Below are positions 11,745-40,109 of a stretch of DNA of 64,000 nucleotides, piece after piece. The notes under the pieces are model-generated. The model did not search any database. It was given only the letters and a program-made list of their open reading frames with translations, and was not told the DNA's origin. Positions within the stretch are counted from its first letter, which is position 1. Every line of letters begins with the position of its first letter. The position numbers and the translations under genes are program-made. Source of the stretch: Octopus sinensis (lineage: Eukaryota); the NCBI RefSeq assembly GCF_006345805.1, contig NC_043009.1:61256001-61320000 (forward strand), in the 5' to 3' direction.

Positions 11745-11749
<5 letters not shown>

Positions 11750-11944
11750 TAATCCAAACAAGAAAACACAAAAAAAACACAACGCGAGGACGTGGAACAA
11801 ATAAAGTATTATTGGACGCTCAGGAAAGAAGGAAAAAAGGAGTTTAACGTTTCGAGTGGAGCTCTTCGTTGGAAACATAGGAGAAGGAAAGATCCAGAGA
11901 AGGGAAGACAGAGGAAAAAAAATCGCCAACGGTACACACGCGGT

Positions 11945-11950
<6 letters not shown>
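11745..11950 (-). mobile_element. Short Penelope-like (pLTR-type) module, family A, with a degenerate hammerhead
   Basis: Flanked by (TA)n; paralog of 20833-21046. Minus-strand GTTT-CCAACGA-A-GAGC-TCC-ACTC-GAAA-CG-TT-AAAC at 11842-11876. Confidence 0.7.
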
Positions 11951-11984
<34 letters not shown>

Positions 11985-12165
11985 TAAATTAGAGATAAAA
12001 CCACTATTAGGCAAATCATACAATGAAAAACTTAAGCCAATACATAAGATTATTTAATTTATATTATTTAAATATATAACAAAATTATTAAAAAAATATA
12101 ATTAATATAACACTACGATCGTTTCATGGCTGTTAATTTCTTTAAATTTTCTAGTTACAGTCATA
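11985..12165 (-). mobile_element. Penelope-like 3' fragment with a hammerhead 3' half
   Basis: Minus strand reads GAAAC-GATC-GTA-GTG (~12111-12125), the same stem III as the complete motif at 32394-32475; microsatellite-bounded. Confidence 0.5.
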
Positions 12166-13019
12166 CATATATATAGATATAGATAGATAGATAGATAGAT
12201 AGATAGCAAGACATTGGACAGTCAGTGTGTTGCGTTTAAGAAGACCACAGAGCATAGAGCTTGATAAGTGGCCCTTTAATTGACAGCAGTAAAAGTGACA
12301 TTTTCTACATGCTATATTAAACATTTTGTTACTTATGTAGTATTTTATCTGTAACATAATTGTTTTTTTATTGAATTATTGTTGTATTTTTGTGAATTAT
12401 TTATATCACAACAAACATCACAACAGTGATTCATCACATTATTCAAAAAGTCAATAAGATGTATATCAATGGTCATCCGTTGATATCTATCTTGGGTCAT
12501 GAAAGGTCAACAATCTGCTTTCTGTCCATCAGTTTGCAGTGTAAGTTTAAATAAATATCTATTTTTATGCAAACCAACAGATTCATAAGAGGCCTTCGTT
12601 GTGGTCAATCAATCTTCAAGAAATAGCAGTCAAATCTCCTTCAAATTGCATCCTAGAAACTTAAATAAGAATACAACACATTAGATAATGTCCTTCTAGT
12701 ACATGATCCTAAAAAAACAGAATGGTCATGACTGGAGTGTCTTTGAACATATATCTGTTCAAACAGGGCTAAGCTGGGGCAAACAAAATCAAACCATAAA
12801 GAATATTTCCATAATGAAACAGTTACATTGACAAATTTTGGTTCACTTTGTCAGTGCTAGATCAACCATTAACCAAAATAAGTATGTGCTTAGGGCATCA
12901 AGGGGAGGTGTGGTCAACACAGAAATGGTAAATGGTTTACAACACAAAAGAAATTACTTTAAACCTACTAAAATAATTATCCCAACTGGTTTATGATCGA
13001 AAATATAATTAGGGGTTGA

Positions 13020-13502
13020 TTCCATCCAACAGTTCTTGAGATGTCTTGTCGATGGACAAACAAACAAACAAACACAACTGAAAACAATACCTCTGCCTTC
13101 GCTAAGGTGGAGGTAACAATATATTAATTAAAACAAGAGCACTCATAAAGCGCAAACTTCCACCAAGGCAACGCCAACATCCTCTTAATGATTAGCCGGA
13201 AATGATTTTTAAAATGAGAATATCTGAAATAAACTCAACTGCTCTCACAAACAAGAATACTAAAAAAATGAACCCTACCACTCTCAAAAATTAAGTTTAA
13301 AAAACCAGAAAAATAATCCAGAATCTTTGTCTAGTACCGGATTGATATGAAAAATTTTATCAGTTTGTGCCAGTCACAAGGCCAAACATCCCTGAAAGTT
13401 TCATCTGAATCCATCCAGTGGTTCTTGAGATATCTTGTCCATGGACAAACAAACAAACATGACTGTAATCAATACCTCGACCTTCGCTAAGGAAGAAGTA
13501 AT
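13020..13502 (+). mobile_element. Helentron-associated (HINE/DINE-like) non-autonomous element, partial tandem
   Basis: Starts AAACAAGAGCACTC..GCAAAC(C)TCC(G)CCAAGG; 3' hairpin ACCTC(C)GCCTTCGCTAAGG(C)GGAGGT present twice; paralog at 59880-60250. Confidence 0.6.
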
Positions 13503-14039
13503 AAGAGAAGACTTAAAAGCCAAATGTAAAAAGAAACAAAAGTAAGTCCTAAATGAAGTTCTTTACAAAACAACAAAACTGCAATACTCCAAGTAACTTT
13601 CGTTCACCACCTTCAAACTTATGAAACTCCACAGAACAACAAGTGAACAAATTTGATAACTTCCAAATCATTTCATTCTATTCATTATCCAGGTTTGTTT
13701 TGTATAAAATAAAATAAAATAAAATAAAATAAAATAATCAACAAAAATATTCGTCATATACTTTTACTAATTATTGTTTCTAATGTGGAGATAATTTTTA
13801 ATGTTATTAACAAGTCACGCACGGCTGAGTGTACGAACGTATTTAGCTGTGATGGTGTTCAAAGAGCAAACAGCTGTTCTAGACACCTTGGAGTCGATCC
13901 ACCATATATTTTTGTTCTTTTGTTTTTGTTTTTGTTTTCTTTTTTTGTTTTGCTCTTGGAGCTAACAAGTACAGTTAATTATCGTTATCAAACATAGATT
14001 TTTCAATAAAACCAATTAAAAAATTAACTATTACATCCA

Positions 14040-14690
14040 GTATCATCATCATTTAACGTCAGTTTTCCATCCTGGCATGGGTTGGACGGCTTGACAGGAA
14101 CTGGAAAAGGCCAGGTGTTGCACCAGATTCCATAGTCTGTTTTGGTCTGGTCTCTACAGCTGGATGACCTTGTAGGAAATGAGTTGGCACTGGATGGGTG
14201 ATTCACAATTCCATACATAGTTCATGGAAGGAAAAGGCAAGGACAAGATCTCTCCGAAACAAATAACAATAATAATTTATTTCACCTAAATAAACATTTC
14301 ATCTCTGGACATCGGTAGCCTGGACGCCTTGGTATGGAAGCAGCAAGGTTGGCAGTTAGACACAAAAATACGAAGACATTTTCACAGACTCGCAGCATCA
14401 CTCGCCGTCAGAATTCCAGCTCCACGGAGCTGGTCTAAGTTGCATCCTGTCTGGACAGAAGCCAGGGCCGAAGAGGATGAATGGGTGGTCAAGCCTAGCT
14501 GCTGCTGATGATTGCACATGCGTATAAGGGGCTTCCGTCAGATCTCCGGAAAGCTCTAATTCTATGCGCATGCATGGATGAATGTTCCACAAAGGCGTCT
14601 CGACCAGGCATCGCTACAACCTTTCTAATGCCAACCACTTTACAGTAGGGTGTACTGGGTGCTTATTACGTGGCACCATCACCATGATAT
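14040..14690 (-). mobile_element. RTE LINE 3'UTR fragment interrupted by a solo LTR
   Basis: (CAT)n-TTTAACGTC..CCATCCTGGCATGGGTTGGACGG..CTACAGCTGGATG..CTAATGCCAACCAC, the reverse of the 37650-37826 end. Confidence 0.75.
14171..14618. mobile_element. Solo LTR (Gypsy-like, 448 bp)
   Basis: TGTAG...CTACA inverted termini; 4-bp TSD ACCT at 14167-14170 and 14619-14622; cleanly splits an RTE UTR; internal AATAAA. Confidence 0.75.
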
Positions 14691-14899
14691 GGTCCAGTCC
14701 TTGTTGCAGAATAGAGTGTGCCCCAATGATCCTAGGAGCACTGCCAGCAGAGAGCAGGACCCTTGTAGGATGTCCTATGTTGGATATGTCAAAGGATAGA
14801 GCCCAGACTAAATATGGACCTTCTCTTCCCAGAGGTAGAAATTGCAGACTTGCTAGTTATTCACAAGGTAAGGTTGTACAGAGAGATGCCATCCTCAAT

Positions 14900-16400
14900 G
14901 ACTAATGTAGCACCTTCATTATCAACAACAACAATGCCAAAGAAGATATTCCAGAAAGGAACTGTAAACTGATGGACCAAGTTAATATAGTAACAGGAAA
15001 AGTCATGGTACAAGATAATTAGAAAGAAGTCAAGCTTAAAAGATATGTAATTTGGTTTTGTACCAGAACAAGGTACCGGTAAGTGGCCACTTTAGTGAGA
15101 AACTACAAGAGGTGTTCTTAGCAAAGAGTAAGACAACATCTAGCATTCATTGATGTGGAGAACACCCCTTGACAAAGGCCAAAGCTCTGTAATCTGGTCG
15201 TTGCTGAATAAACTGGATGTAGATGAATGGTTAATGAGAACCATGCAAACCATATACAACAAGGTGAGAATTAGCAATGAGTTTAGTAAGGAATTCTGCA
15301 TGTAGATAAGTGTCCATCAGGACTTGTTTATTATAATCCTTAAGACCATGACAAAAGTGTTCAAGGCTGGATGTTCCTGTATTCCAATGGTTTAGCTCTT
15401 AGAGATGAATCTGTCAAAGATTTAAAGATATTCCAAATGAAGAAGCAAAGCCTAGAAGTGAGAGGCCTCAAAGTAAACCTAGCAAAGACAAAAGTTTTAG
15501 TTAGGAGAGAAGAATGGATCATGATGTGATGTGGGTGTAGTCGTGCAGAAATGAGTCAGTAGGAATTCTGTATGTCAGAAACGTTAGCACGCCAGGCAAG
15601 ATGCGTAGCAGTATTTCGTCTGCTGTTACGTTCTGAGTTCAAATTCCGCCGAGGTCGACTTTGCCTTTCATCCTTTCGGGGTCGATTAAATAAGTACCAG
15701 TTATACACTGGGGTCGATGTAATCGACTTAATTCGTGTGTCTGTCCTTGTTTGTCCCCTCTGTGTTTAGCCCCTTGTGGGTAGTAAAGAAATAGGAATTC
15801 TGTATGATGAATCCAATGTAAACTATGGGATACATAAGAGATGTTGTGCAATCACAGGTGGACGGATGGAGAAAGGAAAATTCATACATGGACAGGTACA
15901 CAAGAGTAGTGTGCAACAAAAGCACCTGTGAAATAATTTTTTCTAAATACTTAAAAGGCTCCATTGAAATAGTTTAAGTGAGGTGACTTAATTAGCATTA
16001 GGGGTGAATATTCTAAAAGCTTACTATACCAGAGTAAGGATGAAGTGGGAAAAGTTTAGAGGAATATTACTTTGGCTTGTAGCAAAGAAATACTTGAAAT
16101 GAAGGGCTGACTGTGTGAATCTTGTATGTGAGCTCCAGTAGATATATAGTGCTAATGTGCATGGACAATGAATCACAAATGAGCTGAGAAAAAAACTAGG
16201 TATAAGAGCAATCAGGTATTGTATGTAAGAGAGAAGATGAGCTGGTGTGGTTATGTGTTGAGAATGGAGAATGACAATTGGGTAAAGAAATGCTAAGTGA
16301 TCCAAATAGAAGGATCCTGCAGAAGAGGAAGGTTAAAGAAGACATGAAGAAGTGGTGATAGTTGATCATAGGAGTTTGAACCTTATGAAGGTGATAGTAA
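14900..16400 (+). pseudogene. Old, heavily decayed RTE ORF2 (RT) remnant
   Basis: Collinear with 35800-37200 (KLMDQV, AFIDVEN, DEWLMR, GLKVNLAKTKVL); many stops and indels. Confidence 0.7.
15575..15791 (+). mobile_element. Young Nin-domain SINE with a 15-bp TSD
   Basis: TAGGAATTCTGTATG at 15560-15574 and 15792-15806. Confidence 0.9.
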
Positions 16401-16492
16401 GTGGCCACACCCATAATAGCAACGTTGCTATTATGGGTGTCTGACAGTTCCACTGTTATGGAATATGGGATATCAGCTCCTCTACAATTATT

Positions 16493-16709
16493 CTTTTCTA
16501 CTCTAGGCATAAGGACCGAAATTTTGGGGGAGGGAGCCAGTCAATTAGATCGACCCCAGTACACAGCTGGTACTTAATTTACCGACCCTGAAAGAATGAA
16601 AGACAAAGTTGACCTCGGCAGAATTTGAACTCAGAATGTAAAGACAGATGAAATACCGCTAAGCATTTTGCCCTGTGTGCTAACGCTTCTGCCAGCTCGC
16701 CACCTTAGA
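16493..16709 (-). mobile_element. Nin-domain SINE with TSD
   Basis: TCCTCTACAATTATT at 16478-16492 and 16710-16724. Confidence 0.85.
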
Positions 16710-17079
16710 TCCTCTACAATTATTGGGTAACAGACCCTTGTATCAATATCTTGGTGGATTGTCAAACTCCACCACAATTATGGAGTGTCATATTCTTCCT
16801 GTATTATAGAACACAAGACATGTCCACTGGTGTGGAAAGTCAAATTCTTGTACTAATAGAGCACACCAAACTCTTTTGTTATCCATGGGTTATGAGAGAA
16901 CTTTCTCCATCCAAAATTCCCAAAGAAACCATTCTGCCATTCCTATTTACAGCTCTTGTAGAAGAATTGTTTAGAGAAATAACATTTTTAGATTAGCAAA
17001 TTGATTGGATCCTCCTCCCCCTCCTTCTCCTCCTCTTTATCATCATCATCAGTACATTAACATTACATAGACACAAACT

Positions 17080-17081
<2 letters not shown>

Positions 17082-17116
<35 letters not shown>

Positions 17117-17152
17117 TCATATATATACATATATACATTCATATATTCATAT

Positions 17153-17191
<39 letters not shown>

Positions 17192-17198
17192 TATACAC

Positions 17199-17254
<56 letters not shown>

Positions 17255-17495
17255 TATATATATACATATATACATTCATATATTCATATATATATACATA
17301 CATACATATATATACATTCATATATATATACATATATACATTCATATATTCATATATATATACATACATACATTCATATATTCATATATATATACATACA
17401 TACATATATTCATATATATATACATACATACATATATTCATATATATATACATACATACATATATTCATATATATATACATACATACATATATAT

Positions 17496-17543
<48 letters not shown>

Positions 17544-17562
17544 TATATATACATATATATAT
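17082..17562. repeat. (TA)n/(TACA)n compound microsatellite
   Basis: Directly visible. Confidence 0.95.
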
Positions 17563-18149
17563 TGGTTGTATGTAGGAGGGGATCTATGCGTGTATATCTG
17601 TGAGGAGATGTTTCTGTATGATGTTTGCATGAACGAATATATCAGTGTTATCGTGTATAGTGCATGCTCACATGTGGTGTCTGTGTGTGGAGCTTACTGT
17701 GTATGCGTAGAGTGCTACAAACAACGAGAATTAGGTAGGATCAATATACATATAAAACAAGTAGTAGTAGTAGTGATGGTGGTGGTGGTGTCAGCAGTGA
17801 TAGTGGTAAGGACAAAAGTCCAGTGGTAGTAGTCAGAGTGTTGGTAGCAAGTATGAGGCAAGGGAGAGTATGTTATGTCCAAGACGACAGGGTGTGGTTT
17901 TGATTTCCTTTTAGAATCAATCGGATCAGAAAATCTAACTGTAAATAAATACATTGTGTCTGTATGCATGTGTATATACAACATACATATACACACACAC
18001 AGACATATATATACACACATATGAATATATAAATACTTACAAATAGACACACACACACACACACATATATGTGTATGTGTGTGTATTTATGTGTGTAAGT
18101 GTATATAGGTGAGTGTATGTGTATCCATGTGCGTATAAATGTATAAATT

Positions 18150-18975
18150 GTTCTTTTACTTCACTTTTACTTGTTTCATCCAGAGGCTGTGGCCATGCTG
18201 GGGTACCACCATTGATGTGATTATCAGTTTGTTTCACTTCCATGGGCCCCTTCTTTGTGTTTGGTTTTGGTGAACAAGGGTGCTGGACAATGCTGCTCTC
18301 ATTCAGGTCTCTTGCTGTGATGGGCATCTGAGATAAAAATTTGCCCAAGTATTTTTTCAATACGTCCATATCTATTCCTCACACACCTGTGAAGCTTTCT
18401 GGCAAGGTATCGAAAATCTATGGACACTTTTAACCTGGGTCCTTACTCTAGATCGATAGCTCTCATCTGGGGTCCATATGACCTTTGGGGGTCCATATGA
18501 CCTTTGGGGGTCCATATAAGATTTTGCTGCTAAAAGTTTATGTGCAGTAAACTGGTTATACATTTACAACACACAAAATAGTTCAACAATTTTGTATACA
18601 GTTCCTCATAATATTTAATTATAAAAATATAACTGGATTTTTTTAAACATCACGTAGTTAGTTATAAGAGCACACCCTAGCAAAACAGAATTCTAAGGGA
18701 TCCATAGGCAAAAAATGATTGGGAACCACAGCTCTAGATGGAATTGGTAGAACTTTTGGTACTATGCAATAGTGTCCAGTTTGGGAGTTGATACAACTTT
18801 CTAATCCAAAGGTAGGAGTTAAATCCTACAGGATTTTCCATGTCTTTTGCACTGCATATCTTTTGTGTCTTCACTCCAGGGAGGAGGGGTATCAGTTCTC
18901 TTTGCCTCCACCAGTAGCTCAACTGTTGCACTGAGGCAATCTTTCTGTAAAAACACTGAACTGCTTCAGGTAAAA
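18150..18975 (-). pseudogene. Decayed 3' end of a CR1/L2-group LINE ORF2 plus tail
   Basis: Minus strand gives ..LSYWWRQREL.. and DVLKKYLGKFLSQMP, resembling C-terminal motifs of CR1/L2-group ORF2 (SYWERL..L..LERRR; F K..LD..L...PD). Ends in CCAGCATGGCCACAGCC..TGAAACAAGTAAAAG. Confidence 0.55.
18454..18731. mobile_element. hAT (Charlie-like) MITE
   Basis: Perfect 8-bp TSD CTCTAGAT at 18446-18453 and 18732-18739; same family as 27519-28047. Confidence 0.8.
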
Positions 18976-19029
18976 TATGTGTAATTGAGGTAAAATATGT
19001 GTATGTCAAAGAAATCTGTACGGTATAAA

Positions 19030-19230
19030 TATATATAGTTCAAAATTATACAAAAAAAAACCCAAAAGACAAAGACAGGTGAGGGAAAAATCAAGGTATA
19101 TAAAAACAAGGTGTATTAGTTTGATACTTAAGGAAAATGGAAGAGTCTTTGATGTTTCAAGCCTATGCTCTTCTATGGAAAGGAATGAAGAGAGAAAACA
19201 GATGAAAAGAGGGAAAAAAAACTGTCTGGA
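19030..19230 (-). mobile_element. Penelope-like module, family B, with a degenerate hammerhead
   Basis: Paralog of 25625-25848. Minus-strand CTTT-CCATAGA-A-GAGC-ATAG-GCTT-GAAA-CA-TC-AAAG at 19147-19182. Confidence 0.65.
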
Positions 19231-19399
19231 TTAACAGTTGCGCATGTCACTCATTTTTGTCAGATGAGCGAACTGGAGTAACAAGAAATGAAGTGTTTTG
19301 CTCAAGAACACAACCCATCACCCAGTCCCGGAAATGAAACCAGAATCTTACTATCATAAGTATAACCACTAAGCCACACTTCCACACCATACATACCAA

Positions 19400-20685
19400 T
19401 CAGGTCATCCCATAAGTTCTGTCCGAATTTTGAATAAAGAAAACAAGTGATCAAATGTTATATTTAATTGAAATTTAATCATCAATGTACTTTCCCTGAA
19501 TATCTAAGACTTCCTTCCATCTATTTACAAGCTTTTTAATCCCATCAATGTAAAAACACTTTTGGTTTCAAAGCGAAGAACTCTGAAATGTCAGTTTCGA
19601 CCTCCTCCTGGCTTGCGAATGTTACGTCCCTCAAATGATTCTGTAAACTACTAAATAAATGGTAGTCTGAAGGAGCAAGGTCGGGAGAATAAGGTGGATG
19701 AGGAACTTTTTCCCAACCAAGCTCTTCAATCTTTTGTGATGTGTTCTTTGCAGTATGGGGTCACGCATTGACCTGATGAAACATCACTCGTTTTTGATTC
19801 ACTAAAGCGGGTCTTTTTTCTTTAAAGCTTGGTTCAAATGCTCTAATTGCTGACAGTAGACTTGAGCATTGATTATTGTATTAGGTGGTAATAATTCAAA
19901 GTGAATTACTCCTTTGCAATCCCACCAGATAGAGAGAAGAACCTTTTTCCCATGAACTTCCCTTCTTGGATGTGGTTGAGCTTTTTTCCCTTTTACCAAG
20001 CCACTGTTTACAATGCTTAACATTTTGATAGACAATCCATTTTTCATCACCAGTCACAAGTCTATCCAAAAAGGGTGAAATGAGTTTGCAAGAATGGAGA
20101 GAAGAGCAGATGTCAACTCGGGATTTGCAGTTGCTTTTGGACAATTTATGAGGCACCCATTTTCCAAGTTTAGGAACTTTTCCAAGTTGTTGATGATGAT
20201 AAACAGTTGTATGGTTTGAACTAAGCTTTATTGCCAATTCTTTAACTGATAATGCAGGATTTTCTTCAAGTAATGCCTCAAGGAGCTTATCATCAAACTC
20301 AACTGGACGTTCTGTTTGATCTTCATCTTCAAAGCTGAAATCTCTACTTCTGAATTTTGCAAACCATCTTCTGCAAGTTCTTTCATTCAAGCATTTTTCC
20401 CCATAAACTGAGTGTATGTTTCGAGTCGCTTCGGCTGCAGAGTTTCCTTTTTTGTACTCGTAAAGCATTATGTGCCTGAAATGGTCTTTGGATACTTCCA
20501 TGTTAGAAAGGGTTTTAATCAAAGAAATATTAATTCTATTATCCTATAAAATAATATTTAATTAGTTTAAATGCACACAAATGCATAAAAATATTTTTTA
20601 ATTCCATTAGACATTCTAAAATACTATTAAACTTCATTCAATTTTAAAAAAGGTAAAACCAGACAGAACTTATAGGATGACCTGA
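19400..20685 (-). mobile_element. Full-length mariner transposon 1 (~1.29 kb)
   Basis: TIRs TCAGGTCATCCCATAAGTTCTGTCCG / CAGACAGAACTTATAGGATGACCTGA followed by TA. Confidence 0.93.
19474..20501 (-). pseudogene. Mariner DD34D transposase, frameshifted
   Basis: MEVSKDHFRHIML.., WVPHKL, LVTGDEKW, KKVLLSIWWD, HPPYSPDLAPSDYHLF; split across ORFs 19896..20522 and 19802..20050. Confidence 0.92.
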
Positions 20686-20832
20686 TACATACATTCATTC
20701 ATACATACATACATACATACATATATACATACATACATACATACATACATTCATACATACATACGTACTTACATACAGTCATATATACGTATATAAATAC
20801 ATACATATATACGTATATACATACATACATTC

Positions 20833-21046
20833 AAAATGTGACTGCATGTGTACCGTTGGCGATTTTTTTCCTCCATCTTCCCTTCTTTGGATCTTTCCTT
20901 TTCCTATGTTTCTGACGAAGAGCTCTGCTCGAAATGTTAAACCCTCCTTCTTTCCTTCTTTCCTGAGTGTCCAATAATACTATACTTGTTCCACGTCCTC
21001 GCGTTGTTGTGTTTTCTCTTTGTGATTTCATGTTTGGATTAACTTT
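20833..21046 (+). mobile_element. Penelope-like module, family A
   Basis: Between (TACA)n tracts; paralog of 11745-11950; contains a hammerhead. Confidence 0.75.
20908..20942 (+). ncRNA. Minimal type-I hammerhead ribozyme motif
   Basis: GTTT-CTGACGA-A-GAGC-TCT-GCTC-GAAA-TG-TT-AAAC. Stem I GTTT/AAAC, stem II GAGC/GCTC, canonical core. Confidence 0.75.
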
Positions 21047-21100
21047 ACATACATACATGCATGCATGCATACATACATACATACATACTACATACATACA

Positions 21101-21134
<34 letters not shown>

Positions 21135-21164
21135 CATACATACATACATACATACATACATACA

Positions 21165-21196
<32 letters not shown>

Positions 21197-21326
21197 AACT
21201 AGATATACATGCAGTGCTAGTAAATGTACAAACTGATGAGTTTGAGGCATTTTGGTACAGCTGTTTTGGTGCCTCTTATTTAGCATCAATGATCAAAGCT
21301 AATTTGACATCAGATATTTAAGCATT

Positions 21327-21384
<58 letters not shown>

Positions 21385-22014
21385 GTTTATGTGTGTGAGT
21401 ATATTTCTTTTTAGTAGTCTGAGGAGAGGGAAAGATTTTATGCCAATTGTGTTGTGTTCAATTAATAAATTGTAATTTCTCCCTCCTCTCTCTTTCCCTT
21501 TATGTGTGTGAGGAGAGGGAAAGCATTTATGCCAATTATGTTCAACTAATAACTTGTAACATCTGCCTCATCAACACCACAATTACCAGCATCACCACCA
21601 CCACCACAATCATTGCAATCACCACCCAAAACCACCAAACACTCCAATGTACAAAAGTGAAAGTTGGAAGAATTCTATTCCAATCTCCTCACACGTGTTA
21701 AAGAGAAGTGGAGCCTGAGGTAAACTGGAAACATTTGAGATTTGAACCTCTTTCCTTCGTTTCTCTAACTACCTGTCTCTCTATCTGTCTGCCTGTCCAT
21801 CTCTCTCTCTATATATATCTCTCTCACTCTCTTCCATTCAATATGGATGGGCAAGGAGAGAAAGAGGCAATGGAAATGGTGCGGCAAGCAAGTTGTTTCC
21901 AGTTGAAACAAGCTTTATCATTGGTCAAGACAGCGCTGAGAGTGTGTGGGGGAGGGAGTGGGTTAAAATGTCATTGACACCAAGCCTTTGGAGAGGAGGG
22001 AAAAGTAAGAAGAT

Positions 22015-22240
22015 ATATATATGTATACTGACATATACATACATGTATGTGCGAGTATATATATATATATATATGCATACATACATATATATACATATAT
22101 ATATATATATACATATATATACATATATATACACATATATATATACATATATATATATACATATATATACATATATATACATATACATATATACATATAT
22201 ATATACATATATATACATATACATATATATATACATATAC

Positions 22241-22279
<39 letters not shown>

Positions 22280-22346
22280 TATATACATGTATATATATAT
22301 ACATATATATATACATATGCATGTATATATATATATATTATATATA

Positions 22347-22380
<34 letters not shown>

Positions 22381-22410
22381 TACACATGTGTGTGTGTGTG
22401 TACATACATA
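22015..22410. repeat. (TA)n/(TATACA)n microsatellite
   Basis: Directly visible; accounts for the many YI-rich ORFs. Confidence 0.95.
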
Positions 22411-22886
22411 TTTACAAGACCAAAAACAACACGTACACAGGTGCTGAAAATGAATGTTAGAGAGAGAAGGGAGGGGGAGCATGGGTGGTGGCGAGAGAGA
22501 AGGACAAGGTAATAGGGGGAGGGGTGATCAAAAGTGATTACAACATAAAGGTCAACAAGAATACTTGTAACAAAATCTGATATCTGTAAATATAGCTCAG
22601 CAGCTACACACACACACACACACACACACGTCTTGGTGTGTGCGTGTGTGTGTGAGTGTGTGTGTGTGTGTGTGTATTTATCCTGAGAGAGGAAGAGAGA
22701 GACAGAGAGAGAAAGAGAGAAGAGTTCTTGTAGTCATGGAGAGATTAGTTCATTTCTTACAGAAAGGTTTGCAGACGGGGGGGTGTATGTATGTATGTAT
22801 GTATGTATGTATATATATGTGTGTACACACACATACATACATACACATGTGCACATGTGCATATACATATATAAAAGTATACTTGA

Positions 22887-22917
<31 letters not shown>

Positions 22918-23800
22918 TATTGGCTGTGTGGTAAGTAACTTGCTTACCGACCACATGGTTCCAGGTTCAGTCCCACGGTGTGGCACCTTAGGCAAGTATT
23001 TTCTACTATATCCTTGGGCTGACCAAAGCCTTGTGAGCGGATTTAGTAGATGGAAACTGAAAGGTAATCCCATAGACCAGCCTTCTCCATTTTTAATACA
23101 CACACACACACACACACACACAAAAACACACACATTGATTAATTTTAGAATTTATTAGAATTTAGGGACAGTAATACACAGGACACCAGAAATGTCTCGG
23201 TACAATAAGAGAGGGTTCACAGTGAGGTAAAAGAACCATAAAGGTATCATGAACTGGTGGAGATACTATAAATATGTAAGTACCAAATCCGATTTAAACC
23301 ATGGATCCAACTCAAGGCTGGCTCTAGGTGCAGCATTCTTTCGCATATATACCATCATCATCATCATCATATAACGTCCGCTAGTATTTTGTTATAGTGC
23401 CTTGTAATGGACTCTCCTTTTTGTAAACACCAGGAAAACCAGGGAGAAAGTTTAGCCACCCATTGCATATATCCAATATAACACTTGTGTCATGAAGTTT
23501 ACATCTTCCATGTTCTTCTTAATATTTTCTCTTTCTTTATTGCCCGCAGGGGGCTAAACATAGAGGGGACAAACAAGGACAGACAAAGAGATTAAGTCGA
23601 TTACATCGACCCCAGTGCGTAACTGGTACTCAATTTATCGACCCCGAAAGAATGAAAGGCAAAGTCACCCGTGGTGACACAAATATTATGTAACTTACTT
23701 TGGTCGTTTGAAGTTTACTCAGCAGTTTACATGTTCATGATTTGTTAATGATGATGATTAGGAAGAGGAGGAGATATTTAATTATGGCATTTACGTAATA

Positions 23801-25052
23801 CATTGGGTTGGCAAGAAAGTAATTTCGGTTTTTTAGTGTGAAATAAAAGTCATTTTTTTTTCATACAAAGAATGAACTTTAATGAATTATATATTTTCCA
23901 TTTTGCTTGATGACCTTTTGCCATCTTTCTGGCAACTTCATGATTCTGCTCTCATAAAACTTCTGGTCCTTATCAGTCAAAAACTGAAGCAAGTGCAATT
24001 TCAGTTCATCATCAAATTTCAAAATAAATGGTAATCTGATGGTGCAAGGTTAGGACTATATGCTTGATGTGACATTACTTCCAAACCAAGCACCAATAAT
24101 TTTTCACAAGTTAGCAAAGACATGTGTGGTCTAGCATTGTCATGATTCCTTTATGATTTGCCAATTCTGGCTGTTTTTCTTTGATTGCTTCCTCTAGTTT
24201 CATTAGTTGTTGACAGTAAACATCTGAATTGATCGTTTGGTTCCTTGAAAGCAGCTCAAAATACACAACACCTTTCTAATCCTACCAAATTGCCAGCATG
24301 ACATTTTTTTTATGCAATTCAACTTTCGATGTGGTTTATGCTGGTTCATTATTCTTGGACCATGATCGTTTTCGATTGATGTTATTGTAGACAGTCCATT
24401 TTTAATCACCAGTGATAATTCGTTTAAAAAAAAAAGTCGATTTCATTGTTTGAGATGCATATCACAAATATTGATTTGTTGTGTTAAGTGAATCTCTCTC
24501 AATTTATGTGGAATCCAAATATCGAGCATCTTAACAAGTCCAAGATATCTTAAGTGTTTTTCACTTGTTGTGTGTGATACAGTTAAACTCTCTGCAATCT
24601 CTCGCACAGTTATATGACAATCAGATTCGATTATGGCTTTGATTCGGCCATCATCAACTTCAGTAGGCTGACCAGAACGTTGGTCATCTTTGAGTGAAAA
24701 ATCTCCAGAACAGAATTTCTAAAACCATTTCTGACATGTGCATTCTGTTAAGCAATCAACACCATAAGCTTCACATTTCTCTTTGTGGGCTTCAGCAGCT
24801 TTCTTGCCTTTATGAATATAAAAAAGCAAAACATGGTAGAAATGTTCGTTTTTTGCACTCCATGTTAAAATTGACAGTGAACTAACAGCAGCAAACAAAA
24901 TTATGCGCAATTTGCTTCTAAAGTAAGCTAAAAGTAAAGTCTATCAAATGTCAAAAGGAAAAAAATTATAACATTGACAAAAGTCATTAAAAAAAAAATC
25001 ATGACTCTATCTATTTGCAAAAAAATTAACTTACTTTCTTGCCAACGCAACA
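23801..25052 (-). mobile_element. Full-length mariner transposon 2 with a decayed transposase (~23880-24863)
   Basis: TA then ATTGGGTTGGCAAGAAAGTAA at the left end, TTACTTTCTTGCCAACGCAA at the right. Minus-strand NEHFYHVLLF, CQKWF, WIPHKL, ITGD, and a YSPNLAPSDY-like motif. Confidence 0.88.
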
Positions 25053-25624
25053 TTATCAACGCTTGGTTTATAATTGGGTGTAATGTATGTTATGTTCTGC
25101 TTGATGGATTTTTGATAATGTGTTTATCTATTCCATTGTCAGTGTGACTTTGGTTCATGCCATGCACTTTATATGTACTTTATTTATACAGGGTGTGGCT
25201 AATATCGTATATTGTATTGAATTTGTATCTATATTATTCTAAAGCTTGGTCAATTAACCTCTCTGTATATGAGTTATTGATTAGGGTTTGATTTTGTTTC
25301 TTTCTTTTCTTCAGATCTATTCTTTTTCTTTTTTCTTTTCATGCCTCATTTGTATTTAGTTATAGCCCTCTGTGTTCTGAGTTCAAATCCTGTCAGGTTG
25401 TGTGGTTAAGAAGATTGCTTTGCAACCAATTGATTTCAGGTTCAATCTCACAGCACAACATCTTGAGTAAGTGTCTTCTGTTATAGCCTTGGGCCAACCA
25501 ATATTTTGTGAATAGATTTGATATTTGGAAACTGCATGAAAGCCCGTCATACATATGTGTGTGTGTGTCTGTATGTGTGTCTGCATGTGCATGTGTGTGT
25601 GAATGTGCATATATATGTGTGACT

Positions 25625-25846
25625 CTACTCTTGATGAGAAATCCTTGCAATACACCACGACGTCAAAAAACCTTCGAACTTTACGTAAAACTGTTATTCT
25701 CTCCTTGTTTTTTCTGTGTCCCTTTCTGTAGAAGAGCATAGGTTCGAAACGTAAAAGACTTTTTCTATTCCTGAGCATTATACTAATACATCTGTTTGTT
25801 TTGTACACCATCTGTCTTCGTCTTTTGTTTTTTCATAAACTCTCCC

Positions 25847-32754: not shown

Positions 32755-34900
32755 GCCCATCTGGACAGTTAATCAAGTTACTCAAGGGGTCATACCCAAT
32801 GACTGGATTAGTAATATTGTAAACTGCTGCAAGAGCAAACCAGGTGCCTTAGAGAGAAAGGAAACAACAGTAGAATCAAACTATTGTATCATGTTACGGT
32901 CACAGAGAGATCACAGTATAACTGAACGATGAAAGAGTAGACCCAGATGAGATGTATTTTGGCTTCATGCCAAGAATTACCATGGCTGCAATCTTCCTAA
33001 CAAGGCAACTTCAGGAGAAATACTTGGTTAAGAGTAAACCACTATTCCTGGAATTTGTTGACTTGGAGAAGGCATTTGACATTCAGTAATTTAATGGTTA
33101 CTAAGGAAACTAGATGTAAATAAATGACTTATTGAGGGCTGTACAAAATATGCACAAATATGCAGTAAGTAAAGTGAGAATCAACAATGAATTTAGTGAC
33201 AAATTTTTAGCCTTGAAGGAAGGTGCCCATCAAGATTTAGTCCTCAACCTGTCTCCTATTCTTCATAATCCTACAAACCATCACACAAGTCTTTCAGACT
33301 GGTTGTCCAAGGGGACTCTTATAAGCTGGTTCTTGCAGAAGAATCTATAGAGGAATTAGAGAGAAAATTCCAGGCATAGAACCTAAACCTAGAATTTAGA
33401 GGCTTCAAGATAAACTTAACAAAGTTTAAAGTTTTAGCGAGTAGTATCTTTAAGGAAATAACAATATGTAGAAATAGAGTAAGTATAAACTTCATGTGCT
33501 AAACTTAATATAAGCTATGAATACACAGGAGGTCTTGTGGAATTACAGGCAAACTAACGTAGAATGTAAGCTTCATATATGACCATTGCATTGGAACAGT
33601 TTATACTAAAAACTCACCAAAAACTTTTTTAAATGACCAAATAGCTTACTATAAGTAGTCAATTGCTTTTGTTACCTAAAAGATATATATTTCTTTGCCA
33701 CCCACAAGGGGCTAAACATAGAAAGGACAAACAAGGACAGACAAATGGATTAAGTCGATTACATCGACCCCAGTGCGTAACTGGTACTTAATTTATCGAC
33801 CCCGAAAGGATGAAAGGCAAAGTCGATCTCGGCAGAATTTGAACTCAGAACATAACGGCAGACGAAATACCACAAAGCATTTTGCCCGGCGTGCTAACAA
33901 TTCTGCCAGCTCGCTGCCCTAAGAGATATAATCAGCAGGGAGGTTGTTGCTTGGAGAGTATAGTAGCCAGGATAAGGATAGGAAAAGTTCAGGTTAATAC
34001 AACTGCTGTTGACAACAATCTTTTCCCTCAGAGCGAACGGCAGATTGTATGATGCTTGTGTTAAACCTGTGATGCTGCAAGGTAGTGAGACATGGACCTT
34101 AAATGCAGAGGGCTAGAGAAAACTGGAGAGGAATTAAGTCAGAATGCTCTGATGGATATGCAATGTTTGTGTGTATAAAAGACAAATTACAACTGAATTT
34201 GGAGAAAAATTGGACATAAGAGGAATCACATGTAGTGTTTTAGAAAGTTGATTGCATCGGTATGGACTTGTGATGCATATGGATGAGGAAAGCTGTATAA
34301 AGAATTGCCAATCACTTAGTATAGATGGAGCTTGCAGAAGAAAGATACCCAGGAAAACATGGGACAAAGTAGCATAAGTTAATTTCAGGACTTTGAATCT
34401 CATGGAGGAGATGAAAAATGACTGAGATGAAGTTGCTGGAAATGGAGATCTCCAGGTCCAAATTCTTGGAAGGCATGCTACATGGTAGTGAGACATGGGC
34501 TTTGAATGTAGAGAACATGCAAAGACTGGAAAGAAATGCAGCAAGCATTCTTCCCTGCATGTGCAATGTCAGTGTGCAATGAATAACAAGGTATGTTGAG
34601 AGAAAAACTGAGTGTAAGACGAATCAGATGTCGTGTGAAAAAGAAGTTTGATTATGTGATGAGGACAGCTTTATAAGAAAGTCTTGTCAATGTGGATGGA
34701 ACTTGTAGAAGAGGGTGACCCAGGAAAATGTGGGATGGAAGAGTGAAGGCTGATCTCAGGATGTTGAGCTTCACAGGTAAGATGGCAAAGAACTGGGATG
34801 AATGGCAATATTCAGTGCTCAAGAAGATTACTCCTCGCAGTAAAAGCGAGATTCTAAAAGCATTAAATGTGTGCATACAACTGGGTCCTACACTCCCAGT
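32755..34900 (+). pseudogene. Old RTE ORF2 remnant(s) with a nested SINE (33690-33918)
   Basis: VNQVTQGVIPNDW, QLQEKYL, EFVDLEKAFD, GRLYDACV, GSETW; partial second 3' copy at ~34460-34830. Confidence 0.8.
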
Positions 34901-39358: not shown

Positions 39359-40109
39359 TCATCATCATCATCATCATCGTTTAACGTCCGTTTTCCATGC
39401 TAGCATGGGTTGGACGGTTCGACTGGGGTCTGGGAAGCCAGGGGCTGCACCAGGCTCCAGTCTGATCTGGCAGAGTTTCTACAGCTGGATGCCCTTCCTA
39501 ACGCCAACCACTCCGCGATATATATATATATCTATTTCTTTACTACCCACAAGGGGCTAAACACAGAGGGGACAAACAAGGACAGACAAACGGATTAAGT
39601 TGATTACATCGACCCCAGTGCGTAACTGGTACTTAATTTATCAACCCCGAAAGGATGAAAGGCAAAGTTGACCTCAGCGGAATTTGAACCCAGAACGTAA
39701 CGGCAGACGAAATACGGCTATGCATTTCGCCCAGCGTGCTAACGTTTCTGCCAGCTCGCCACCTTTATATATATATATATATCATCATCATCAGCATTTA
39801 ATATCTGTTTTCCATGTCGGCATGTAATAATTATTTCAATAATTATTTTTGCCATGAGGGCAGCTTGGGGGGGGGGGGGGCGGTAGGGATTTGTTGATTA
39901 CATCAACTCCGCTGTTCAACAGGTACTTATTTTGTCAAATTTTATCAACTCCCGAAAAGGATGAAAGGCAAAGTTGGCACAAGGCCAGTAAATTTGGGGA
40001 GGGGATAAGTTGATTAGATCGACTTCAGTACTCAACGGGCACTTATTTTATTGACCCCAGAAGGATGAAAACCAAAGTTGACCACAGTAGAATTTGAACT
40101 CAAAACAAA

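Follow-up and report, generated by a model that had tools for sequence, protein, structure and literature searches.

Four short hammerhead-like motifs in a 64,000-nucleotide stretch of the Octopus sinensis genome (contig NC_043009.1, hereafter the window) raise the question of what kind of element they belong to and which catalytic cores its source copies carried. The initial annotation assigned them to two sister families, A and B, with two copies each. It proposed that both families descend from CCG cores, CCGACGA in A and CCGTAGA in B, with the CTG and CCA of the present copies being the two products of CpG decay.

The window contains four minimal hammerhead motifs

Hammerheads A1 (11842-11876; GTTT CCAACGA A GAGC TCC ACTC GAAA CGTT AAAC) and B1 (19147-19182; CTTT CCATAGA A GAGC ATAG GCTT GAAA CATC AAAG) lie on the minus strand, A2 (20908-20942; GTTT CTGACGA A GAGC TCT GCTC GAAA TGTT AAAC) and B2 (25722-25757; CTTT CTGTAGA A GAGC ATAG GTTC GAAA CGTA AAAG) on the plus strand. 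A relaxed descriptor found these 4 motifs in the window, compared with a mean of 0.03 (maximum 1) in 60 block shuffles. Judged by sequence, all four are genuine hammerheads of the minimal type I class, located at the 3' ends of two families of Penelope-like retroelements (PLEs), and the identity given in the initial annotation is borne out for each of them. The same holds, in the window copies, for the stem I sequences (GTTT/AAAC in A, CTTT/AAAG in B), the CTG versus CCA difference within each pair and the variation of the cleavage position within UH (TT, TA, TC). The stem II GAGC/GCTC ascribed to both families is a family-level feature, because only one of the four window copies has GCTC as its 3' strand, the others having ACTC, GCTT and GTTC.

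Each pair consists of members of different subfamilies. Copy A1 (11747..11949, minus strand) is a 5'-truncated, pLTR-sized 3' end between (TA)n tracts; it belongs to the U4C subfamily of family A and bears TTCTCC, which is diagnostic of this CCG subfamily. Its core, CCAACGA, corresponds to CCGACGA with G5A by CpG decay and is accompanied by a stem II mismatch, so that the hammerhead, with a nominal cut between 11846 and 11845 on the minus strand, is predicted to be inactive. Copy A2 (20830..21044, plus strand) is a 3' end of the canonical-core (CTGACGA) subfamily, for which TTTTCC is diagnostic; its core is canonical, its ACGU palindrome is broken by C15.2U and its nominal cut falls after 20938. 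Copy B1 (19037..19222, minus strand; 5' limit approximate) is an old, diverged 3' end of family B, which a tree built from flanks alone places within clade B on a long terminal branch (0.43). Its core, CCATAGA, carries G5A together with G16.2A, again predicting inactivity, and its 11 nearest sampled copies comprise 10 with CTG, 1 with CCG and none with CCA. Copy B2 (25694..25846, plus strand; 5' limit approximate), a 3' end of the CTGTAGA subfamily followed by (TA)n, has the family-type A6U core and an intact GAAAC-GUA, with a nominal cut after 25753; it is the window copy nearest to its own subfamily motif.

Fold, pairing and constraint

The motifs follow the type I order of stem I, core, stem II, GAAA, NUH and stem I. 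In the alignment, 95.1% of 693 stem cells are paired, compared with 25-40% when slid; C3-G8 is paired in 62 of 63 rows and U16.1 is invariant. A vestigial palindromic stem III (ACGU, then U, A or C) is present, and the cut follows a GTT, GTA or GTC triplet; position 17 is G in 1 of 215 copies. The extra base at 9.1, the G10.1-C11.1 pair and G12, A13, A14 and A15.1 are also found in 44 flank-found copies, their conservation being partly fixed by the search patterns. The consensus core, C3 U4 G5 A6 N7 G8 A9, occurs in the TTTTCC subfamily of A and in family D; the TTCTCC subfamily of A departs from it by U4C and family B by A6U. Families D/E and F likewise include CCG cores; all three were found with motif patterns, and their conservation is thus partly by construction. 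A second conserved block (GAGC, then a TAATAC-like sequence) lies 18-45 nt downstream of the motif in all families.

Covariation provides less. The G-C to C-G swap in stem I, from which the initial annotation concluded that the structure was still maintained, is one terminal pair and one event, and this pair is unpaired in 15 of 63 rows; the swap is genuine, the conclusion weakly shown. That no other stem pair covaries, and that family F leaves this one unpaired (C.C or C.A in 9 of 11 rows), counts against the reading favoured below. Nearest-neighbour folding, with the values for B1 left out, returned stem II, but stem I, at a pair probability of 0.1-0.35, lost out to competing pairings. Cofolding by the same approach returned no hammerhead dimer, a structure that MFE and cofold predictions do not model. 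In an Rfam scan, none of the 147 matches at E<=1 was to a hammerhead family; all were miRNA/snoRNA matches driven by microsatellites.

The endonucleases of A and B are identical at 48 of 95 positions (51%), and the two families share 27-29 of 36 positions in the motif, compared with 55-59 of 93 in the downstream flank and 21-25 of 41 in the upstream flank. Since the catalytic residues persist between such distant lineages while N7, H17 and loop II vary, selection is suggested to have acted on the parent elements. The genomic copies, by contrast with their parents, can be regarded as decaying neutrally; in the comparison of motif and flank, CpG sites decay alike (11.6% vs 9.8%). The lower divergence of the motif than of its flanks among copies was not taken as selection on the copies, since the search patterns fix part of the motif and flank divergence is inflated by the use of single reference copies.

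U4C and A6U are subfamily- and family-level cores

Across the genome, exact patterns match PLE 3'-end hammerheads at least 23,118 times. Family A consists of two subfamilies, one with CCGACGA (U4C; 5,903 matches) and one with the canonical CTGACGA (2,861 matches). Among the first 100 listed copies of each, positions 3-5 read CCG in 89, CCA in 8 and CTG in 3 of the TTCTCC subfamily, and CTG in 92, CCG in 6, CCA in 1 and CTA in 1 of the TTTTCC subfamily. Several non-CpG sites in the flanks are linked to position 4, and when copies are grouped with the core letters left out, the groups still separate cleanly by core. The cores are inherited at the subfamily level, and CCGACGA, by these counts, represents a genuine master-level core carried by the majority of family A. 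DNA searches with the window copies were excluded from the counts, as they retrieve the sequences most like the query, with a bias towards CTG; a random 400 kb sample held only 5 copies, too few for allele counts. Contigs of 4 sequencing runs cover the stretch, and the known position-4 polymorphism is not listed in them, which makes them uninformative.

On a flank-only tree, C4 copies are nested within U4 copies (support 100/96 and 100/97), so that U4C is most likely derived in family A rather than ancestral as first proposed; a clade of all U4 copies, the C4-ancestral alternative, is not rejected (p-AU 0.109). An earlier tree, built with the motif included and with distant outgroups, had its root among C4 copies; it was redone on flanks only with closer outgroups.

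Family B has the core CTGTNGA: of 200 listed copies, 193 have U4 and 191 have U6. A6U, as read in the initial annotation, is thus, on these counts, genuine. It is kept in all sampled B subfamilies, the other core residues being retained, and N7 takes all four bases among them. Loop II, previously given as ATAG, is predominantly GTAG (about 83 of the first 100 listed copies, counted by eye); ATAG, found in 6 of these 100, is best read as the CpG-decay product of C-GTAG. Taken together, CUGU cores number at least 13,500 copies and CCGA cores about 5,900. The expectation that CUGANGA searches miss most copies was correct, as roughly 87% of the pattern-counted copies lack this sequence.

The motifs lie at the 3' ends of Penelope-like elements

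The motif is part of the 3' UTR, in sense orientation, and follows a coding sequence for reverse transcriptase (RT) and GIY-YIG endonuclease (EN). In both families, long copies (L018 and L297 in A; L107, L285 and L293 in B) extend upstream into the C-terminal GIY-YIG and RT, a CxxxxCxxC linker being present between RT and EN. In tblastn comparisons with the genome's intact 781-aa RVT_1 + GIY-YIG ORF, E values were 2e-34 (L285), 5e-39 (L293) and 1e-19 (L297); Pfam matches on the decayed A and B ORFs stayed below cut-off (GIY-YIG, E 0.018; RVT_1, E 0.06-0.08). Of 12 loci retrieved with B coding DNA, 10 have the motif downstream, two being partly deleted; for loci retrieved with A upstream DNA, the figure is 11 of 12. 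The top GIY-YIG Pfam matches were set aside: they mostly represent another PLE family, that of the 781-aa ORF, without such a motif at a fixed place behind it.

All 20 extended loci are 5'-truncated and none has an upstream pLTR; among the copies recovered, none is full-length with two pLTRs. Copies end sharply at the 3' side on (TA)n, with a microsatellite end in 102 of 112 sampled copies. Their 5' ends form a ladder, although in family A 40 of 57 copies start 93-114 nt upstream of the cut site; this boundary coincides with TG/TA-like sequence able to give microhomology with the target. Tandem arrays of hammerhead units were not found: the window copies are solitary, and local pairs are few.

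Alternative interpretations

We favour, with moderate confidence, the view that the four repeats are truncated PLE 3' ends whose family hammerheads, U4C in the larger A subfamily or A6U in B, are likely still weakly self-cleaving. The main challenge is that the motif may be catalytically dead or irrelevant in these lineages, serving as a folded handle for the RT-EN protein or as a promoter or processing signal of the pLTR, so that core letters dispensable for binding drift. None of 37 flank-found copies starts within 3 nt of the cut site, which counts against cleavage. Substitutions within the CUGA turn are highly damaging in vitro: in a saturation-mutagenesis study of a different hammerhead, activity was low for all single changes in this turn (PMC9901934), and A6C sharply cut Mg2+-dependent rates (PMC7151607). 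In PMC11167929, PLE insertion in vitro was unimpaired by hammerhead mutations, and no RNA-seq ends of the anole element were seen at the cut site; the block conserved downstream indicates that non-catalytic signals exist. However, tolerated change tracks hammerhead chemistry (free N7, near-absence of G17, C3-G8 pairing, invariant U16.1), and A6U persists across the sampled B subfamilies, in which the other core residues are retained. We regard a dead motif as rather unlikely.

The common 5' boundary, narrow in 40 of 57 A copies and shared by many B copies, could instead mark the start of a separate unit of about 210 nt, SINE- or retrozyme-like and non-autonomous, that the PLE mobilises in trans; PLE-derived non-LTR retrozymes are known (10.64898/2026.07.22.740005). 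This seems improbable, as the same termini run on into the ORF in long copies, the 5' ends form a ladder, most sampled copies are solitary and not in tandem arrays, and the boundary may reflect target microhomology; it would in any case alter the mode of spread, not the identity of the motif. Least probable by far is descent of both families from CCG cores. Such decay does describe the TTCTCC subfamily, so that CCGACGA was correctly reconstructed and A1's CCA is its decayed form; CCG cores in D/E and F, the root of the motif-inclusive tree and the p-AU value would also allow an ancestral C4 in A. Yet A2's CTG stems from the separate canonical subfamily, in which 92 CTG face a single CCA, and the flank-only tree nests C4 within U4. 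In family B, CCG occurs in only 3 of 200 listed copies (1/100 and 2/100) and CCA in none. By these counts, the reading is refuted for A2 and for family B, and with it the ancestral U4C+A6U core CCGTAGA.

Relation to known hammerheads and proposed mechanism

PLE mini-hammerheads and natural U4C and A6C variants are already published. The octopus motifs share with the minimal PLE hammerheads in the examined portions of PMC4209133 the U-rich flanks, a short helix I, an extra base between A9 and G10.1, the G10.1-C11.1 pair, a loopless palindromic 15.2-16.2 and the NUH site, as well as thousands of solitary copies from truncated PLEs and many consensus families with compensatory changes. The consensus there is CUGANGAH, with U4 and A6 in all alignment rows examined and U3-A8 as a core variant of its own, whereas U4C and A6U in the octopus are master-level and cover most copies. 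Small PLE-associated hammerheads (Lunse, Weinberg, Breaker 2017, as summarised in PMC6765202) likewise have a reduced stem III, and theirs cleave as dimers. Viroid U4C and phage Bcep176 A6C are single substitutions at these two positions of the CUGA turn, and both leave weak, measurable activity (passages of PMC3088659, PMC7151607): U4C, less active in vitro, supported viroid infectivity, and A6C cleaved at <0.1/min (PMC3088659). These are, however, rare single examples in full-size ribozymes, whereas the octopus variants are lineage-fixed in thousands of copies on a minimal scaffold. A6U is not among the natural core variants in those passages, and no lineage-wide A6U hammerhead was found in the literature searched; Lunse et al. 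2017 and the rest of the PMC4209133 supplement may bear on its novelty. A term search of PMC13282606 found Penelope without ribozymes, and the parts of PMC11014351 and PMC6155905 consulted added nothing on U4/A6 variants. In their features, the octopus elements resemble C-terminal EN+ PLEs of the Neptune/Nematis type (PMC8557442, in part) and the anole Poseidon element PAc (PMC11167929, in part) in RT, CxxC linker, GIY-YIG, a hammerhead near the 3' end and microsatellite insertion. A PLE hammerhead cleaved only together with its own protein in PMC11167929.

We propose that the RNA of the parent element would be weakly cleaved as a predicted dimer, probably aided by the element's protein. Stem III would consist of A15.1-U16.1 and C15.2-G16.2 only, and because this loopless ACGU palindrome lacks a closing loop, two motifs would need to pair. 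Source elements would be under selection to keep C3, G5, G8, A9, stem II, GAAA and NUH, with N7, H17, loop II, U4 and A6 free to drift, while inserted solo copies, these four included, would be inert and decaying. More tentatively, and with less than even confidence, whole retrotransposon lineages may use hammerheads whose CUGA turn has been rewritten (CUGU, CCGA), with cleavage restored by their own protein or a dimer; most would then be invisible to CUGANGA searches, and A6U would be natural and functional.

The link between PLEs and hammerheads being established, the variant cores represent an extension of known biology. If A6U and U4C motifs cleave, genomic hammerhead descriptors need widening, and sister subfamilies one core base apart would provide a natural test of the role of cleavage in retrotransposition and of the rescue of weak cores by the RT-EN protein. 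If they do not, PLEs can amplify with a disabled ribozyme, which would bear on the same question of what cleavage contributes.

Results

Hammerhead motifs at the 3' ends of Penelope-like elements

The window contains four hammerhead-like motifs, two in repeats of family A (A1, 11842-11876, minus strand; A2, 20908-20942, plus strand) and two in family B (B1, 19147-19182, minus strand; B2, 25722-25757, plus strand). A relaxed descriptor gave four matches, as compared with a mean of 0.03 over 60 shuffles, and an Rfam scan of the window returned 147 hits at E<=1, none to a hammerhead family. The elements run in the order 4-bp stem I, C3 to A9, an extra A, stem II (GAGC/GCTC), GAAA, CGUH and stem I, with stem III reduced to the loopless pairs A15.1-U16.1 and C15.2-G16.2. 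As read from their sequence, all four motifs have a type I hammerhead architecture.

Across the 2.72-Gb genome, exact patterns yielded 9,595 matches for family A (reversed control, 0) and 8,356 and 5,167 for two family B patterns (reversed controls, 5 and 0). A 400-kb sample of unselected DNA contained five copies, which extrapolates to a few tens of thousands in the genome. Copies have laddered 5' ends and sharp 3' ends, ~90-105 nt past the cut site, with a microsatellite at the 3' end in 102 of 112 sampled copies. Starts cluster ~90-100 nt upstream of the cut in B and ~93-114 nt upstream in 40 of 57 A copies (e.g., A1 and A2 at window 11949 and 20830), which suggests that the terminal repeat (pLTR) has its border there, that the transcript is short or that (TA)n/(TG)n targets share microhomology with the element.

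Pfam matches on the decayed A and B reading frames were weak; tblastn with an intact RVT_1 plus GIY-YIG ORF from the same genome gave E values of 2e-34 and 5e-39 for B and 1e-19 for A. Among 12 loci per family retrieved through upstream or coding DNA, a same-strand motif lay downstream in 11 for A and 10 for B. Taken together, the coding match and the motif downstream of it identify both families, at the sequence level, as 3' ends of Penelope-like elements (PLEs). Their endonucleases are identical at 48 of 95 positions, and no full-length element flanked by two pLTRs emerged from 20 extended loci. A different, young PLE family (L241, L243, L244 and other loci) has intact 781-aa RT plus GIY-YIG ORFs with a long frame upstream; the descriptor used found no canonical hammerhead behind it.

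Further repeats occupy the same DNA: a ~1.29-kb remnant (19399-20686) bounded by terminal inverted repeats, with a disrupted transposase on the minus strand, which we take to be Tc1/mariner with a DD34D-type transposase; a second, distinct mariner-like remnant (~23800-25055), which also has inverted ends and a disrupted minus-strand transposase; and an abundant, SINE-like dispersed repeat of ~250 nt on both strands (15573-15794, 16469-16716, 23525-23772, 33683-33930, 39528-39775 and elsewhere).

Core sequences of the two families

The initial annotation derived the CTG and CCA cores of each family from an ancestral CCG by CpG decay. By eye, the first 100 of the 9,595 family A matches comprise 60 CCG, 31 CTG, 7 CCA and 2 others, a split too lopsided for CpG decay as the sole cause. 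One base upstream of the core separates two contexts: TTCTCC (5,903 matches; first 100: 89 CCG, 8 CCA, 3 CTG) versus TTTTCC (2,861 matches; first 100: 92 CTG, 6 CCG, 1 CCA, 1 CTA). Position 4 is linked to several further non-CpG flank sites in 140 aligned copies, and groups assigned without the core retain the division (C-type, 50 CCG, 6 CCA and 1 CTG among 60; T-type, 70 CTG and 6 CCG among 80). A1 belongs to the CCG subfamily and its CCA is indeed a decayed CCG, whereas A2 sits in the canonical CTG subfamily and is no decay product.

For family B, the proposed ancestor CCGTAGA is refuted: in two lists of 100 copies, tallied by eye, CCG occurs once and twice and CCA never, with U4 in 95 and 98 copies. 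U6 is present in 95 and 96, so the proposed A6U change holds, with a single origin on the tree, and no family core combines U4C with A6U. B1 (CCATAGA) is old and sits at the end of a long branch within clade B; 10 of the 11 sampled copies nearest to it carry CTG. All four bases occur at N7, depending on the subfamily, and the family loop is GTAG, the annotated ATAG being its CpG decay product. From the listed fractions, we estimate that ~3,000 of 23,118 matches fit CUGANGA. In the CTGTAGA subfamily (window 25700-25733), a polypyrimidine tract and the in-core TAG resemble a 3' splice acceptor, a candidate whose AG is missing from the other subfamilies.

Among loci L375-L404 and L405-L434, we observed three related families: D, with canonical CTGAAGA cores; E, with core CCGAAGA and loop GTCT; and F, with CTTT...AAAC/AAAA and an unpaired outer stem I pair.

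In a flank-only tree of 41 rows (8 from each subgroup and 9 outgroup rows), the C4 copies are monophyletic (100/96) and nest with the younger U4 group (100/97). On this tree, the direction in family A was most likely U4 to C4, although a constraint keeping all U4 copies together was not rejected (p-AU 0.109). An earlier tree that included the motif was rooted among C4 copies. Since C4 also occurs in D/E and F, and position 4 requires 10 changes on a 78-row tree, this position toggles.

Discussion

Published work already covers mini-hammerheads in PLEs and how abundant they are, as well as compensatory changes at the family level and natural variation at core positions 4 and 6. Among the publications covered by our search, none described hammerheads in octopus PLEs or a core with A6U throughout a lineage.

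As to the suggestion that the structure was still maintained, 95.1% of cells pair across 63 non-identical rows that represent every family. The covariation comes down to one pair and one event: two-sided change is real only at the outer stem I pair (26 GC, 19 CG, 3 GU, 15 unpaired), and a shuffle test on the count of covarying pairs was not significant (203/500). In family F, which the tree places between B and A/D, 9 of 11 rows show C.C or C.A at this pair, although the family was retrieved by a pattern fixing the 5' C and a bulge could re-pair two rows. Judged from sequence comparison, the pattern of change between lineages is better evidence for a maintained structure than covariation. N7, loop II and H17 vary freely, with H17 being G in just 1 of 215 copies, and A and B agree at 27-29 of 36 motif positions, against 55-59 of 93 in the downstream flank and 21-25 of 41 in the upstream flank, in a comparison made without a low-complexity null. 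CpG decay is similar in motif (11.6%) and flank (9.8%) among 44 of 61 flank-found copies, the other 17 being truncated or too diverged, as expected for inert copies.

All families also show a second conserved block 18-45 nt past the cut, GAGC followed by a TAATAC-like sequence (e.g., window 20962-20983). Of 215 copies, 152 have this GAGC, which might compete with hammerhead folding by pairing with the stem II 3' strand; alternatively, it could serve as a protein or promoter signal.

By analogy with the PLE mini-hammerheads described in PMC4209133 and in a review (PMC6765202), two motifs of one tandem RNA would associate via ACGU and cut after GUH, thereby trimming the precursor RNA. Folding programs did not return a hammerhead dimer. 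Of 37 flank-found copies, none starts 3 nt or less from the cut, and a start at +4 in one copy is ambiguous; this count speaks against cleavage leaving a mark. The motif may instead be a catalytically dead fold that binds protein, a reading we consider less likely. PLE mini-hammerheads are slow in vitro. The anole PAc motif required its protein for cleavage and was dispensable for insertion in vitro (PMC11167929). U4C reduces activity and still supports viroid infectivity (PMC3088659), and cleavage by A6C in Mg2+ is slow (PMC3088659, PMC7151607); in one saturation screen, all single substitutions in the CUGA turn gave low activity (PMC9901934). Given the slow motifs, the protein dependence of PAc and the weak activity of U4C and A6C, we favor weak, assisted cleavage over a dead fold, and these octopus elements would probably retain it under relaxed selection.
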